The position numbers and the translations under genes are program-made. A DNA stretch of 64,000 nt, taken from assembly GCF_009931435.1 (NCBI RefSeq), contig NZ_CP043414.1; one strand, given 5' to 3'. The number at the start of each line of letters is the position of its first letter. Positions within the stretch are counted from its first letter, which is position 1. Shown piece after piece: positions 6,709-33,607 of the stretch. The notes under the pieces are model-generated. The model searched no databases. It had not been told where the DNA came from and was given only the letters and a program-made list of their open reading frames with translations. Source of the DNA: Escherichia coli (GTDB taxonomy: Bacteria; Pseudomonadota; Gammaproteobacteria; Enterobacterales; Enterobacteriaceae).

Positions 6709-7566
6709 TTAGCCCTGAAAACGGGCGCTGTACTCTCCCGGCGTCAGGCCAAACTGACGCCGGAAGACGCGACAAAAATAGTCGCTGTCCGGAAAGCCGC
6801 AACGCTGCGCCACTTCATGAATCGACAGATGATATTTCTGCAAAATCATCCTCGCCTTCGCCATTCGCACCCAACGCACATATTCGATAAAACGCATTGT
6901 TCCATGCTGCGCAAACAGTTTTGACAGATGATTGGGCGTGATATTAAAAAACTGCGCCACGTTCTCACGGGTGAGCGGTTGGGCATAATTATCCTGAACC
7001 CAGTTACAAATGCTGTGATAGAGAAAATCGCCGCGCGGCTGCGAATTACCCGGCGGCATATTGACCACGTTGCGGCAAAGATGCAGCAAACTTAACACCA
7101 GCGGCTGAATGATATTCTGCTCCAGCGGCGAACGGCTAAGATGGGTGAGGGCAGTAAGCATTGCTTCACCTTCGCCGCGTTGCAGGCTGGGAAGTTGGAT
7201 CTGGCGAACCGGATGCAACAACGACGTGGTGTGGCTATCGTAATACGATAAACCAAGCCAGGTCGGCGCGAACACCAGACTTAACAGCATCACCAGTTTG
7301 TTGTTGACCGGTAAATTAGCCGCGCGCGCCGGAATAAACAGCATTTCTCCTTCCACTATATGTTGCTGCTTTGCTTCCAGCAGATTGCCGTATTCGCCGC
7401 GCAGCACGATATCCAGACGGGGAAAATCAATACATAAACTGCCCACCGGCAACGAGGCCGGCTGGCTGGCAAACCAGACGCGCCCCAGTAGTTGCGGGTT
7501 AAGCACCAGGCCGCTGAACAGATCGGCGAAAAATTGTTGATCGGCGGGCAAGCCTGTTGCTTTCAT
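6709..7566 (-). CDS. ypdC: AraC-family transcriptional regulator
   Basis: 285 aa; C-terminal AraC HTH (HLSIHEVAQRCGFPDSDYFCRVFRRQFGLTPGEY). Confidence 0.85.
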   Translation of the reverse strand: MKATGLPADQQFFADLFSGLVLNPQLLGRVWFASQPASLPVGSLCIDFPRLDIVLRGEYGNLLEAKQQHIVEGEMLFIPARAANLPVNNKLVMLLSLVFAPTWLGLSYYDSHTTSLLHPVRQIQLPSLQRGEGEAMLTALTHLSRSPLEQNIIQPLVLSLLHLCRNVVNMPPGNSQPRGDFLYHSICNWVQDNYAQPLTRENVAQFFNITPNHLSKLFAQHGTMRFIEYVRWVRMAKARMILQKYHLSIHEVAQRCGFPDSDYFCRVFRRQFGLTPGEYSARFQG

Positions 7567-7578
7567 GAAAGTTCCCGA

Positions 7579-8313
7579 TTACAGATGCATTAACTGGCGG
7601 AATTCTTTAACTTTGCTACGGCTGACCGGTACTTCAAAATCCAGATCTTTCAGCCGCAGAATGTAGGTGTTATTAAACCACGGTTCGATTTCGCGTATTT
7701 TGTTCAGATTGACACAAAATGAGCGATGGCAGCGGAAAAAATGCGACGGCGGCAGCTTGCTGCAAAACTCGGTAATGTTCATCGGCATTACGTAGGATTC
7801 ACGCCGCGTATAGACAAAGGTCATTTTCTCGTGCGCTTCGGCGTAATAGATATCGTTAATTGGCGTGACGATGATTCGCTCATCTTTCACCAGATTAATG
7901 GTGTCATTCTCACGCGTTACCGTCGCGGCAGGCGTACTGCTGGTCTGCTGTTGTTGCCAGGCTGCTTCCAGTTTTTGCAGCATCCCGGTAATGCGTGATT
8001 CCTGATACGGTTTGAGAATGTAGTCAAACGCTTCCAGTTCAAACGCTTCCACCGCATGTTCTTTCCACGCAGTGATGAACACAATAAACGGTTTATGGGC
8101 AAACTGGCTGATGTTTTGCGCCAGCAACACGCCATCCAGCGACGGAATATTGATATCCAGAAAAATGGCGTCGACGCGGTTATGCTGCAAAAACTTCAAC
8201 ACGTCCAGACCGTCGTCAAAGGTGCCGACAATCTCCATCTGGCTGTGCTCTTTAATCAGCCAGCTCAGTTCCTGTTGTGCCAGGAATTCGTCTTCAACAA
8301 TGATGACTTTCAC
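7579..8313 (-). CDS. ypdB: LytTR-family response regulator
   Basis: Receiver domain (KVIIVEDE...DAIFLDINIP) plus LytTR DNA-binding domain; start trimmed to the GTG codon (plus 8311-8313) giving 244 aa; the ORF track extends 6 codons further. Confidence 0.8.
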   Translation of the reverse strand: MKVIIVEDEFLAQQELSWLIKEHSQMEIVGTFDDGLDVLKFLQHNRVDAIFLDINIPSLDGVLLAQNISQFAHKPFIVFITAWKEHAVEAFELEAFDYILKPYQESRITGMLQKLEAAWQQQQTSSTPAATVTRENDTINLVKDERIIVTPINDIYYAEAHEKMTFVYTRRESYVMPMNITEFCSKLPPSHFFRCHRSFCVNLNKIREIEPWFNNTYILRLKDLDFEVPVSRSKVKEFRQLMHL

Positions 8314-8327
8314 AATATCACTCCGGC

Positions 8328-10025
8328 TCAAAGCAATAACGTAGCCTGTGAGGCGACAGGGGTGCGTTGGTTAGGAATGTAAAACGCAATTTCCGTTCCT
8401 GGTTCCAGGCGGCGGATATGCAGCCCCTCGCCATACAATAACTTCACACGATGATGGACATTCAGCAGGCCAATTTTATTGCCCGGCATTTCGTTCGCTT
8501 CGACCCGCTCAATCACCTTTGGATCGATGCCGTGCCCGGTATCTCGCACCGCAATGCGTACCCGATTCCCGCACTCAGCAACGCTGATGGTGACAACGCC
8601 TTTACCTTTGCAAGGCTGGATACCGTGGACAATGGCGTTCTCCACTAAAGGCTGGATCAGCAGGCTGGGAATGCAGCAATTCACCTCTTCATCAATATCA
8701 TAGATAACCGTCAGCTTGTCGCCAAAGCGGGCCTGCTCAATGGCAATATAGTCTTTAATTTGATACAGCTCTTTTTTGATATCGATTTGCTCATCGTCTT
8801 TTAATTCAATGTTATAGCGCAGATAACGCGACAGATTAAAGATTAACTGGCGAGCGGTATCCGGATTCAGACGGATCGACGATGAGATAGCATTCAGAGC
8901 ATTAAACAGGAAATGGGGATTAATTTTGCTTTGCAGAGCGCGAAGCTCTGCCTTATTTGCCATTTCACGTAGTTGCTCGGCGCGTGAAACCTCCAGTTGG
9001 GTGGAGATGATTTGCGACAGACCGACCGCCATTTCCTGTAATGACGAGGTAATCTGATGCGCGTGGCAGTAGTAAATTTTCAGCGTCCCGGTCACGACCC
9101 CTTTCTCCCAAAGCGGGATCACCAGCATCGAGTGGATTTCCGGTGTACGGTGGGCTTCATCATTGTTTTTGATAATGATTTTTCCGTAATTCATTGCCTG
9201 ACGCGTTGTTGGGCTAATGAAATCATCGCCATTCTGATAGTTGTGTTCCCCTACGCCAACATAGGCCAGCACATGATCGGTGTTGGTAATCGCTACCGCA
9301 TCGGCGTGAATATCATCGCGAATAATTTCACAAACTTTGCGTAATGACTCGCTATTGACATGGCGAAACAGCGGTAGCGTTTTGTTGGCGATATCCAGCG
9401 CCAGCTTGGCCTGCCGCGCGGCGCTGGCCTCTTTTTCGCCCTCAACGCTTTGCACCAGCAGCACAATAAAGCCGATACAGACGCTACCGAGGATCATTGG
9501 AATCCCGATTTTAGAGACGATATCGATCCCCAACGCGGTAGTTGGTGCCCAGACAATCACCAGAATCATGGTCAACGTTTCACACAACATGCCACCGAGA
9601 ATACCGACGCGCCAGCGCTGTGCTTTGGGGATTTTCAGGTTAATCCAGCCTGATATGCAACCCGCGAGAATACTGGTGATAAAGCACGGAATTGCCGTCA
9701 CGCCGCCGATGTCAATTAAATAACGGTGAATACCCGCAATCACACCGGTTATGATGCCTACCCACGGGCCAAATAGAATTCCGCCTGACATCACCGCGAT
9801 AATACGCACATTAACCAGCGAGCCTTCTACGGGCACGCCGGACTAGGTGCTGAACAGGGCGAACAGCGAGAAAATGGCGGTAACGGCGAGCAGCTCTTTT
9901 GGGGAGTGTGCCGACTTGTGCAACAGTTCGCGAAACAGGCGGATACGGATAAGAAAGAACAGGCAGATAAGCATTAACGCTGCCCGATCGAAGACCGCCA
10001 GCAGCATGTTGAATATTTCGTGCAC
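8328..10025 (-). pseudogene. ypdA: LytS-type sensor histidine kinase interrupted by an in-frame TAG
   Basis: Track ORFs 9843..10025 (60 aa) and 8328..9836 (502 aa) are the same frame; 60 codons + TAG (9843-9845) + 2 codons + 502 = 565 codons, the expected full length; GAF and HisKA_3/HATPase motifs in the downstream part. Confidence 0.7.
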
Positions 10026-10401
10026 GGGTGACTCTGAATAAGGATTAAACCTCTATGATAGGTAACCTGAAGGCTGATGACCAGCAGGCCGTTTTTGAGG
10101 AAAAACCACAATTTTAAAAGGGGATTGAAAGATAAATGGTGTATTAGCAATGCATCTCTTGATAATGCATATCTGTTTGGTAAATTTATTGAAATTATAA
10201 TGTTAATAGATTGAGTGGTAATTTTCTTGTTAGCGTAGATAAATTTCCTGTTTTTAAAGCGGAGTTCCTCATTTAAGGCTATTAACAAAAATGTTCTAAA
10301 ACGCTGGACAGACAGAAATTAATCAGGCTATTTTCAAAACAGCCACCATCGTGGCAGCGTCGCTCGGACGGTCCGGGCGCTCACGTTAATCTGAGGAAAT
10401 T

Positions 10402-29513: not shown

Positions 29514-29713
29514 AATATGTCTCTTTGCGCTTCGATGATAAATGACAGCAGGAATGTGCCCGCCAGAGCGACGACTGAAGCGATAAATGTCGCTGTCGTA
29601 TAGTATTTAAATGTTTCATTGAGCGCAGCGCCGCAATATTGCTTCACCAGCCAGAAAAGCGAGTCCGTAACGAACGTGCAGCCAATCGCAATAATTTCCG
29701 GGCTGATGTCTGG
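29495..29713 (-). pseudogene. dsdX: 3'-terminal remnant of D-serine transporter gene (GntP family)
   Basis: Minus-strand frame reads ...[54 protein letters not shown]..., a hydrophobic permease C-terminus, bounded upstream by a stop at ~29714-29716 with no start; lies just upstream of dsdA, where dsdX sits in K-12. Confidence 0.5.
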
Positions 29714-29969
29714 TTACAGCCACAGCACAATGATCCATATTTATATTTTTTCTCCGGGTGGGTGATGCCAGTCGGCATGATTTACCTACTTGTCTGCATG
29801 GTGACTCGTTGGCGAGAACAGAGGCGGAATTGGTTACAATTGTCCGGGAATTCTTGTTATTTTTTACTGTATTGTCGTGTCGGGTGATAGGACGTTGAGA
29901 ATATCGCTGGATCTCGCCAGTGACGTCTGTTTCTGCTACAGTGCCCGTTTTACGGCAAACGGCTTGGGT

Positions 29970-30965
29970 ATGGCTTCATTAAAGGATGTCGCACGCCTGG
30001 CGGGAGTGTCGATGATGACTGTCTCCCGGGTGATGCATAATGCAGAATCTGTGCGTCCTGCAACGCGTGACCGCGTATTGCAGGCAATCCAAACCCTGAA
30101 TTATGTTCCTGATCTTTCCGCTCGTAAGATGCGCGCTCAGGGACGTAAGCCGTCGACTCTCGCCGTGCTGGCGCAGGATACTGCTACCACTCCTTTCTCT
30201 GTTGATATTCTGCTTGCCATTGAACAAACCGCCAGCGAGTTTGGCTGGAATAGTTTTTTAATCAATATTTTTTCTGAAGATGACGCTGCCCGCGCGGCAC
30301 GTCAGCTGCTTGCCCTCCGTCCGGATGGCATTATCTATACTACAATGGGACTGAGGCATATCACGCTGCCTGAGTCTCTGCATGGTGAAAATATTGTATT
30401 GGCGAACTGTGTGGCGGATGACCCAGCGTTACCCAGTTATATCCCTGATGATTACACTGCCCAATATGAAGCAACACAGCATTTGCTCGCGGCGGGCTAT
30501 CGTCAACCGTTATGCTTCTGGCTACCGGAAGGTGCATTGGCAACAGGGTATCGTCGGCAGGGATTTGAGCAGGCCTGGCGTGATGCTGGACGAGATCTGG
30601 CTGAGGTGAAACAATTTCACATGGCCATAGGTGATGATCACTACACCGATCTCGCAAGTATACTCAATGCCCACTTCCAGTCTGGAAAACCAGATTTTGA
30701 TGTTCTGATTTGTGGTAACGATCGCGCAGCCTTTGTTGCTTATCAGGTTCTTCTGGCGAAGGGGGTACGTATCCCGCAGGATGTCGCCGTAATGGGCTTT
30801 GATAATCTGGTTGGCGTCGGGCATCTGTTTTTACCGCCGCTGACCACAATTCAGCTTCCACATGACATTATCGGGCGGGAAGCTGCATTGCATATTATTG
30901 AAGGTCGTGAAGGGGGAAGGGTAACGCAGATCCCTTGCCCGCTGTTGATCCGTTGTTCCACCTGA
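29970..30965 (+). CDS. cscR: Sucrose operon repressor (LacI family)
   Basis: MASLKDVARLAGVSMMTVSRVMHN... LacI HTH plus periplasmic-binding-protein fold; start set to the ATG at 29970 (331 aa) rather than the GTG-extended track ORF. Confidence 0.85.
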   Translation: MASLKDVARLAGVSMMTVSRVMHNAESVRPATRDRVLQAIQTLNYVPDLSARKMRAQGRKPSTLAVLAQDTATTPFSVDILLAIEQTASEFGWNSFLINIFSEDDAARAARQLLALRPDGIIYTTMGLRHITLPESLHGENIVLANCVADDPALPSYIPDDYTAQYEATQHLLAAGYRQPLCFWLPEGALATGYRRQGFEQAWRDAGRDLAEVKQFHMAIGDDHYTDLASILNAHFQSGKPDFDVLICGNDRAAFVAYQVLLAKGVRIPQDVAVMGFDNLVGVGHLFLPPLTTIQLPHDIIGREAALHIIEGREGGRVTQIPCPLLIRCST

Positions 30966-30972
30966 TATTATG

Positions 30973-32406
30973 TTACCCCAGTTGCCAGAGTGCTCCATGT
31001 TGCAGCACGGCCACTCCGTGGGCGGCATAGAGCGACAGTTCCCGTTCTTCTGGCTGCGGATAGATTCGGCTACTCATCACAGCTTCCCCGTCGTTAATAA
31101 ATACTTCCACGGATGATGTATCGATAAATATCCTTAGGGCGAGCGTGTCACGCTGCGGGAGGGGAATACTACGGTAACCATCTAAATTCTCGTGTGGGTA
31201 ATACCGCCACAAAACAAGTCGCTCAGATTGGTTATCAATATACAGCCGCATTCCCGTGCCGAGCTGTAATCCGTAATGTTCGGCATCGCTGTTCTTCAGA
31301 GCCCAGTGCAACTGAATCTCAACCGCTTGCGCGTTTTCCTGCAAAACATATTTGTTGCTGATTGTGTGGGGAGAGATTGATTGATGCTGCTGGCGTAACG
31401 ACTCAGCTTCGTGTACCGGGCGTTGTAGGAGTTTGCCATTGCTCTCTGATAGCTCGCGCGCCAGCGTCATGCAGCCTGCCCAGCCTTCACGTTTTGAGGG
31501 CATTGGCGATTCCCACATATCCATCCAGCCGATAACAATACGCCGACCATCCTTCGCTAAAAAGCTTTGTGGTGCATAAAAGTCATGCCCATTATCAAGT
31601 TCAGTAAAATGCCCGGATTGTGCAAAAAGTCGTCCTGGCGACCATATTCCGGGTATTACACCACTTTGAAAGCGATTTCGATAATTGTATCCCTCGGCAT
31701 TCATTCCCTGCGGGGAAAACATCAGATAATGTTGATCGCCAAGGCTGAAAAAGTCCGGACATTCCCACATATAGCTTTCACCCGCATCAGCGTGGGCCAG
31801 TACGCGATCGAAAGTCCATTCACGCAATGAACTGCCGCGATAAAGCAGGATCTGTCCCGTGTTGCCTGGGTCTTTCGCCCCGACTACCATCCACCAGGTG
31901 TCGGCTTCACGCCACACTTTAGGATCGCGGAAGTGCATGATTCCTTCTGGTGGAGTGAGGATCACACCTTGTTTCTCGAAATGAATACCATCCCGGCTGG
32001 TAGCCAGACATTGTACTTCACGAATTGCATCGTCATTACCTGCACCATCGAGCCAGACGTGGCCGGTGTAGATAAGTGAGAGGACACCATTGTCATCAAC
32101 AGCACTACCTGAAAAACACCCGTCTTTGTCATTCTCGTCTCCTGGCGCTAGCGCAATAGGCTCGTGCTGCCAGTGGATCATATCGTCGCTGGTGGCATGT
32201 CCCCAGTGCATTGGCCCCCAGTGTTCGCTCATCGGGTGATGCTGATAAAACGCGTGATAACGATTGTTAAACCAGATCAGGCCGTTTGGATCGTTCATCC
32301 ACCCGGCTGGAGGCGCGAGGTGAAAATGGGGATAAAAAGTATTCCCCCGGCGCTCGTGAAGTTTTGCTAGTGCGTTTTGCGCCGCATGCAATCGAGATTG
32401 CGTCAT
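30973..32406 (-). CDS. cscA: Sucrose-6-phosphate hydrolase / invertase (GH32)
   Basis: GH32 N-terminal catalytic motif (WMNDPNG) and downstream RDP/EC motifs; start set to MTQSRL (477 aa). Confidence 0.9.
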   Translation of the reverse strand: MTQSRLHAAQNALAKLHERRGNTFYPHFHLAPPAGWMNDPNGLIWFNNRYHAFYQHHPMSEHWGPMHWGHATSDDMIHWQHEPIALAPGDENDKDGCFSGSAVDDNGVLSLIYTGHVWLDGAGNDDAIREVQCLATSRDGIHFEKQGVILTPPEGIMHFRDPKVWREADTWWMVVGAKDPGNTGQILLYRGSSLREWTFDRVLAHADAGESYMWECPDFFSLGDQHYLMFSPQGMNAEGYNYRNRFQSGVIPGIWSPGRLFAQSGHFTELDNGHDFYAPQSFLAKDGRRIVIGWMDMWESPMPSKREGWAGCMTLARELSESNGKLLQRPVHEAESLRQQHQSISPHTISNKYVLQENAQAVEIQLHWALKNSDAEHYGLQLGTGMRLYIDNQSERLVLWRYYPHENLDGYRSIPLPQRDTLALRIFIDTSSVEVFINDGEAVMSSRIYPQPEERELSLYAAHGVAVLQHGALWQLG

Positions 32407-32621
32407 TTTAATCATCCTGGTTAAGCAAATTTGGTGAATTGTTAACGTTAACTTTTATAAAAATAAAGCCCCTTATCTTTATAAATGTGATTAATATCAC
32501 AAATGTTAACGTTAACTATGACGTTTTGTGATCGAATGTGCATGTTTTAGTAAATCCATGACGATTTTGCGAAAAAGAGGTTTATCACTATGCCTAAGTC
32601 AGATGAATTTGAGGGAAAAAA

Positions 32622-33536
32622 ATGTCAGCCAAAGTATGGGTTTTAGGGGATGCGGTTGTCGATCTCTTGCCTGAATCAGACGGGCGCCTACTGCCTTGTC
32701 CTGGCGGCGCGCCAGCTAACGTTGCGGTGGGAATCGCCAGATTAGGCGGAATAAGTGGGTTTATAGGCCGGGTGGGTGATGATCCTTTTGGCGCGTTAAT
32801 GCAAAGAACGCTGCTAACGGAGGGAGTCGATATCACGTATCTGAAGCAGGATGAATGGCACCGAACATCCACGGTGCTTGTCGATCTGAACGATCAGGGG
32901 GAACGTTCATTTACGTTTATGGTCCGCCCTAGTGCCGATCTTTTTTTAGAGACGACTGACTTGCCCTTCTGGCGACATGGCGAATGGTTACATCTCTGTT
33001 CTATTGCGTTGTCTGCTGAACCTTCGCGTACCAGCGCATTTACTGCGATGACGGCGATCCGGCATGCCGGAGGTTTTGTCAGCTTCGATCCCAATATTCG
33101 TGAAGATCTGTGGCAAGACGAGCATTTGCTCCGCTTGTGTTTGCGACAGGCGCTACAACTGGCGGATGTCGTCAAGCTCTCGGAAGAAGAATGGCGACTT
33201 ATCAGCGGAAAAACACAGAACGATCGGGATATATGTGCTCTGGCAAAAGAGTATGAGATCGCCATGCTGTTGGTGACTAAAGGTGCAGAAGGGGTGGTGG
33301 TCTGTTATCGAGGACAAGTTCACCATTTTGCTGGAATGTCTGTGAATTGTGTCGATAGCACGGGGGCGGGAGATGCGTTCGTTGCCGGGTTACTCACAGG
33401 TCTTTCCTCTACGGGATTAGAGACCGATGAGAGAGAAATGCGACGAATTATCGATCTCGCTCAACGTTGCGGAGCGCTTGCAGTAACGGCGAAAGGGGCA
33501 ATGACAGCGCTGCCATGTCGACAAGATCTGGAATAG
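32622..33536 (+). CDS. cscK: Fructokinase (PfkB family)
   Basis: 304 aa; PfkB motifs GGAPANVA and DSTGAGDAF. Confidence 0.9.
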   Translation: MSAKVWVLGDAVVDLLPESDGRLLPCPGGAPANVAVGIARLGGISGFIGRVGDDPFGALMQRTLLTEGVDITYLKQDEWHRTSTVLVDLNDQGERSFTFMVRPSADLFLETTDLPFWRHGEWLHLCSIALSAEPSRTSAFTAMTAIRHAGGFVSFDPNIREDLWQDEHLLRLCLRQALQLADVVKLSEEEWRLISGKTQNDRDICALAKEYEIAMLLVTKGAEGVVVCYRGQVHHFAGMSVNCVDSTGAGDAFVAGLLTGLSSTGLETDEREMRRIIDLAQRCGALAVTAKGAMTALPCRQDLE

Positions 33537-33607
33537 TGAGAAATAAACGGCGAGGCCGTTCTTGTCTCTGAATAGGACGTGAATATTTTAACGACAGGCA
33601 GGTAATT

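Follow-up and report, generated by a model that had tools for sequence, protein, structure and literature searches.

The window, that is the whole stretch of 64,000 nucleotides of Escherichia coli DNA analysed here, carries the gene order alaC, ypdA-ypdB-ypdC and fryA (annotated ptsP), in which ypdA occupies its conserved position. The domain architecture encoded by this gene, once Trp61 is restored, is also that of a ypdA orthologue. The features at the locus are the following.

8328..10025, minus strand: ypdA (pyrS) pseudogene of 565 codons, broken at codon 61, LytS-type sensor histidine kinase (from orthology, synteny and Pfam)
9843..9845, minus strand: amber codon TAG replacing Trp61 (TGG) of ypdA (from sequence reading and orthologue comparison)
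9846..10025 (9843..10025 with the stop included), minus strand: N-terminal fragment of 60 codons with hydrophobic segments at about 8-26 and 46-60 (from the ORF list and hydropathy)
8328..9836, minus strand: in-frame ORF of 502 codons from GTG (codon 64), a hypothetical restart product without TM I-II (from the ORF list)
9843..9847, plus strand: altered Dcm site, CTAGG here and CCAGG in relatives, coding strand CCTGG (from comparison with the relative L033)
7579..8313, minus strand: ypdB, intact LytTR response regulator, with 0 amino acid differences from the reference and its own SD sequence GGAG (-6.1 kcal/mol)
6709..7566, minus strand: ypdC, intact AraC-family regulator and third gene of the cluster (from gene comparison)

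The minus strand around the stop reads TTC AGC ACC TAG TCC GGC GTG CCC, the TAG being at 9845..9843, and the in-frame amber codon announced by the original prediction at codon 61 of ypdA is thus present. The same prediction had placed two ORFs in a single minus-strand frame that together give the expected length of the kinase. The arithmetic (60 codons, 1 TAG, 2 sense codons and 502 codons) gives 565, in agreement with the annotated ypdA of NZ_AP027764.1, the closest complete RefSeq genome, which has 1,698 nt and encodes 565 amino acids. The window gene differs from this orthologue by 15 bases, 14 of which are synonymous; the only non-synonymous difference is a G to A change (coding strand) at position 9844, which converts TGG (Trp61) to TAG and interrupts the full-length frame. 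Outside codon 61, the encoded YpdA is 100% identical to WP_000544359.1. The stop at codon 61 is confirmed as a direct fact of the sequence and is not a statistical pattern.

Apart from one small island, the window runs collinear with the chromosomes of E. coli. About 4.1 kb of extra DNA (34856..38968), absent from the closest complete genome, lies between cscB and the tRNA-Arg(CCT) gene (38969..39043). It encodes, in addition to a 114-aa ORF with no assignment, three recognisable products.

36386..36844: PACE/BTP-type 'chlorhexidine efflux' protein
36948..37832: LysR-family regulator
38322..38636: truncated integrase fragment without the catalytic domain

The segment looks like a degraded island at the tRNA-Arg gene. 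It is preceded by a sucrose-utilisation cluster (cscR, cscA, cscK and cscB, 29514..34855) adjoining dsdA; the dsdX beside this cluster is by annotation a truncated remnant in the closest genome, and by position the arrangement in the window is the same. Further along, at 55330..56172, an intact but very divergent yfcO-type fimbrial adhesin of 280 aa shares about 75% identity, over the alignable part, with the nearest genome, which is otherwise 96-100% identical, the neighbouring minor fimbrial subunit genes being at 93-97%. These values suggest that the genes of the fimbrial tip have undergone allelic replacement.

Age of the codon 61 stop

The comparison with other E. coli ypdA alleles that had been proposed as a check was carried out with 47-nt megablast queries, for which seeding is possible only in genomes carrying the variant base. 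The control query found TGG at codon 61 in 5,420 of the 5,426 complete RefSeq E. coli genomes, and the variant-specific queries found TAG or TGA in 0 of 5,426. These zero counts are meaningful, since the same query design found 47 genomes for another real allele. The stop therefore lies in an otherwise intact gene, at a tryptophan that is near-universal in the species, which bears out the earlier claim of a kinase that is either inactive or, at most, present as a restart fragment.

No complete RefSeq genome is more than 99.1% identical to the window over 25 kb. Using the exact FryA protein variant of the window as a lineage marker, we found as nearest relative the locus L033 (Logan ERR6140658), which over 12,706 bases differs from the window at 2 positions: 2891, in ypdF, where the change is synonymous, and 9844, where L033 has TGG. 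The stop consequently sits at the extreme tip of its lineage and, judged from this comparison, is a very recent mutation.

An artefact, whether of sequencing, assembly or consensus calling, or a change that a natural strain with TGG underwent during laboratory passage, would also lead one to expect such a relative and the absence of the stop from complete RefSeq genomes. We nevertheless regard such an origin as very unlikely. The change is a substitution and not a homopolymer indel. When 50 annotated genes of the neighbourhood were compared between the window and NZ_AP027764.1, a stop was found only in ypdA and frameshifts in none; with the 49 other genes checked intact, an error-prone assembly is improbable. 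Moreover, the same change occurs in hundreds of independent assemblies from other backgrounds, making it biologically commonplace, and its CCAGG to CTAGG signature is one that real mutation leaves more typically than random error does. Genome decay of the Shigella type was considered as a background for the lesion and ruled out, given that ypdA is the only broken gene in the window and that, outside the small island, collinearity with E. coli is kept.

The ypdA haplotype of the window strain (8328..10060) is unusual among E. coli. For 421 nt at its 5' end, 4,728 of 5,422 matching RefSeq records are 90-95% identical and 4 are at 99% or above. Between ypdA haplotypes the synonymous differences reach about 100, yet the protein is almost invariant; this near-invariance across haplotypes points to strong long-term purifying selection on ypdA, despite frequent short-lived null alleles.

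Predicted fate of the YpdA protein and of pyruvate signalling

In Pfam searches, YpdA with Trp61 restored matched 5TM-5TMR_LYT (28-192), GAF (226-343), His_kinase (359-438) and HATPase_c (456-553), all above the cut-offs. The hydropathy profile of the N-terminus shows hydrophobic segments at about 8-26 and about 46-64. The position of the stop relative to the membrane was taken from this profile together with an alignment to BtsS (YehU), the paralogue acting as high-affinity pyruvate receptor, which is 29% identical to YpdA over 516 residues (BLASTP). Experiments have established that BtsS spans the membrane seven times (7-TM) and has its N-terminus in the periplasm; R72, R99, C110 and S113, in TM III-V, make up its pyruvate site (PMC10653868). 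In the alignment, W59 of BtsS corresponds to W61 of YpdA, which puts the ypdA stop where TM II reaches the periplasm, and R72, R99, C110 and S113 correspond to R74, R101, C114 and T117 of YpdA.

Translation from the native start would accordingly be expected to end after 60 residues, i.e. after the second helix, leaving a two-helix stub as the sole predicted product, from which the sensor domain, the GAF domain and the kinase core would all be missing. The W61 stop almost certainly knocks out ypdA.

A first way around this outcome would be re-initiation of ribosomes at GTG64, yielding a 502-aa YpdA without TM I-II that inserts in the membrane and signals, possibly in a signal-blind or constitutive manner. 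The original prediction held that such a restart would cost the kinase its first TM segment; that segment is indeed lost, but the second one goes with it (about 8-26 and 46-64), so that the loss is of two segments and not one. Several features agree with a restart: GTG64 is in frame and only 6 nt past the TAG, deleting two helices would preserve the topological parity of the remaining protein, the product would retain R74, R101, C114 and T117, aligned with the BtsS pyruvate site and thus a putative ligand pocket, and the native ypdA start itself has a weak SD sequence (-2.4 kcal/mol). Against it, the anti-SD pairing of GTG64 is weak (-1.7 kcal/mol, compared to -6.1 for ypdB) and the first helix of 5TM-5TMR_LYT disappears from the restart product, the Pfam match shrinking from 1-167 to 38-167 of the profile. 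The nine other W61-stop loci listed all carry GTT in place of GTG64, so the recurrent W61-stop allele is independent of a restart. Codon 64 provides neither a ribosome-binding signal nor a conserved restart codon. In addition, the further decay of ypdB or ypdC in other null lineages argues for non-functional alleles, and a search for the exact 502-aa product, beginning with either V or M, returned no gene on record. A functional restart is for these reasons improbable.

Full-length YpdA could also be made if the TAG were decoded as sense, with the help of an amber suppressor tRNA or through programmed readthrough. We consider this scarcely credible. The only tRNA within the 64-kb window is tRNA-Arg(CCT), which is not a suppressor, and the stop is not conserved, L033 and 5,420 of 5,426 genomes having TGG at this codon. 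TGA versions of the W61 stop exist in other strains, and the base 3' of the TAG is U; in E. coli, termination is efficient at a stop followed by U.

Loss of the kinase is thus the preferred outcome, and its predicted consequences concern the response to pyruvate. The YpdA/YpdB system induces yhjX once external pyruvate exceeds about 0.6 mM (PMC5552118) and cross-talks with BtsS/BtsR (PMC5552118, PMC10653868). With the kinase absent, the branch from YpdA/YpdB to yhjX is predicted to be silent, i.e. this low-affinity pyruvate pathway would be off or severely reduced. Expression of ypdB and ypdC may fall as well by polarity, because about 1.5 kb of ypdA message would stay untranslated. A scan of ypdA-ypdB for consensus promoters and terminators gave no more sites than shuffled sequence, and is silent on an internal ypdB promoter.

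Recurrence of codon 61 stops and the Dcm site

The exact 60-aa N-terminal product of YpdA was found in 316 index blocks and 252 contigs of NCBI, ENA and Logan assemblies. The nine W61-stop loci listed are all real internal stops at codon 61, six being TAG and three TGA. Their ypdA haplotypes lie 76-93 nt from that of the window and mostly 30-55 nt from one another, and the stop occurs on at least 8 different ypdA haplotypes, with at least 5 haplotype groups for TAG. As these nine loci sit on distant haplotypes, W61 stops must have arisen many times independently.

As controls, the N-terminal fragments for nine other ypdA nonsense sites reachable by one transition were looked up exactly, and fragments for all nine were present in the public collection, in the following numbers of contigs.

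W88: 20 contigs
W127: 58 contigs
Q136: 43 contigs
W138: 39 contigs
W159: 60 contigs
Q192: 25 contigs
Q205: 99 contigs
Q264: 29 contigs
W306: 62 contigs

The 252 contigs for W61 compare with 20-99 at the nine controls, an excess of 2.5 to 12 times, in counts that mix clonal spread with independent events and carry no phylogenetic correction. The control counts are in part artefact and hence upper bounds, so the real W61 excess is larger than the raw ratio. The apparent Q205 stops were discarded as such, being mostly contigs that break at the palindrome GCCGCGCGGC and not nonsense codons; likewise, some matches for W127 and W159 proved to be contig ends, a 1-nt deletion, an insertion junction or an error-rich assembly. 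The palindrome GCCGCGCGGC is perfect and lies at window 9413..9422 (ypdA gene positions 604-613). Many short-read contigs end exactly there, and artefactual '204-aa YpdA' database fragments that mimic a Q205 stop are the result.

In ypdB, the only site at which Dcm deamination can give a nonsense codon is W119 (GCC TGG), and its fragment was found in 301 contigs versus 25-67 for eight other sites. The clonal Q122* allele, with at least 1,000 contigs, was kept apart from this comparison. By contig counts, recurrence at the Dcm site therefore exceeds that at non-Dcm sites in both ypdA and ypdB. The W119 stop (window about 7957..7959; loci L037-L046 and L026) is mostly TAG and occurs on several haplotypes, and the source names of these loci include Shigella flexneri and S. 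dysenteriae. Two of them with identical W119-stop loci, L037 and L044, also have a split ypdC, and fryA is split in L037.

The coding-strand context of Trp61 is caCC TGG tcc. The ancestral CCWGG has undergone C to T at its second C (CTWGG), the site is conserved in every haplotype examined, and W61 is the sole CCWGG site of ypdA where C to T at the methylated C gives a stop. Such a change is that of a deaminated Dcm 5-methylcytosine, a lesion repaired by Vsr very-short-patch repair (PMC2715241). In the proposed mechanism, the C on the opposite strand, here assumed to be methylated by Dcm, would have been deaminated (CCAGG to CTAGG) and the lesion would have escaped very-short-patch repair. Dcm deamination is most likely the cause of the W61 TAG, as far as the sequence context and the recurrence allow one to judge. 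TGA is not expected from Dcm deamination, and the W61 TGA alleles need an ordinary G to A event. Counted by haplotype group, TAG:TGA is about 9:4 at the Dcm sites (W61 and ypdB W119) versus 2:6 at W127/W159. The difference runs in the direction expected from Dcm deamination and is suggestive, but in this under-powered comparison it falls short of significance (Fisher p = 0.08). A Dcm hotspot best explains the TAG of the window and much of the W61 excess, to which the tolerance of ypdA-null alleles contributes too.

Natural loss of YpdAB and comparison with known systems

Null alleles of the pathway are met with in combination. One locus carries the W61 stop together with ypdB Q122* (L011), another a W159 stop together with ypdB W119* (L026), and a third the W61 stop as TGA together with a frameshift in ypdC (L003). 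The ypdB Q122* allele (CAG to TAG) is present in 47 of the 5,426 complete RefSeq genomes; of the 25 listed, the majority bear the label O111 (STEC O111:H8/H-/NM). In strain O111:H- 11128 (L035 = NC_013364.1 3068013-3073059), ypdB (ECO111_RS34330) is annotated as a pseudogene with 'internal stop' and ypdA is intact; the exact 121-aa YpdB fragment produced by Q122* was found in at least 1,000 contigs. The occurrence of second hits and the fixation of ypdB Q122* in STEC O111 make loss of YpdAB compatible with natural success. The many independent and mostly tip-of-tree nulls of ypdA and ypdB fit an accessory sensor that is dispensable and only weakly held by purifying selection. A literature search found no report of ypdA nonsense or pseudogene alleles in E. 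coli.

These observations bear on whether the loss of YpdA is itself adaptive, with selection against low-affinity pyruvate sensing in some niches driving the recurrence at W61. Such a reading would account for the recurrence of both TAG and TGA at codon 61 in many backgrounds, for the nulls on record at many other ypdA and ypdB codons, and for the ypdB Q122* allele fixed in the successful STEC O111 lineage. We find it unlikely, because W61 stops are rare, none of 5,421 complete genomes having one, and lie at tree tips, that of the window at the very tip, a pattern of mutation-selection balance that is favoured over adaptive sweeps. Furthermore, the excess is concentrated at two Dcm sites (W61 and ypdB W119), and the literature search brought up no published report of adaptive ypdA loss. 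Also unlikely is the broader proposal that W61 stops and ypdAB nulls in general are recurrently selected, for example to shut down low-affinity pyruvate sensing in particular host niches, and that in the window haplotype the GTG64 restart might give a truncated, signal-blind kinase of altered output instead of a clean null.

The reading we prefer, to which we give a probability of about 85%, is that the ypdA of the window has undergone a recent spontaneous TGG to TAG mutation at Trp61, likely by Dcm deamination, resulting in a null allele that would silence YpdA/YpdB and is one of many. It is a real, recent and ordinary strain-level loss-of-function allele, of a known kind and recurring across E. 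coli. For the window strain, it predicts that pyruvate induction of yhjX via YpdA/YpdB is lost, with a small rewiring of the BtsSR/YpdAB network, which is relevant to users of the strain in pyruvate-sensing or colonisation work. The locus offers, moreover, a clean natural case of a Dcm-site amber hotspot recurring in public E. coli genomes. Neither this nor the repeated loss of YpdAB in the wild, lineage-wide in STEC O111, overturns the current understanding.

Among known systems, the closest is YpdA/YpdB (PyrS/PyrR) of K-12, the low-affinity pyruvate sensor for yhjX, with which the window shares locus, synteny and domain architecture, but the window ypdA carries TAG at Trp61 and is a pseudogene allele. 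BtsS is encoded by another gene at another locus, and served here only to show that the stop falls where TM II ends. The ypdB Q122* allele of STEC O111 is, like that of the window, a natural nonsense loss in the same pathway; however, its target is the response regulator, it marks a whole lineage (47 complete genomes) and it lies at a non-Dcm site, whereas the window allele hits the kinase and is private. Finally, the lacI amber hotspots are reportedly the classic case of 5-methylcytosine deamination, from the work of Coulondre and Miller in 1978. Like these Dcm hotspots, the ypdA site of the window has gone from CCAGG to CTAGG to give an amber codon, and is recurrent to an extent exceeding non-Dcm nonsense sites; unlike them, ypdA codon 61 also acquires TGA alleles, which need another route.
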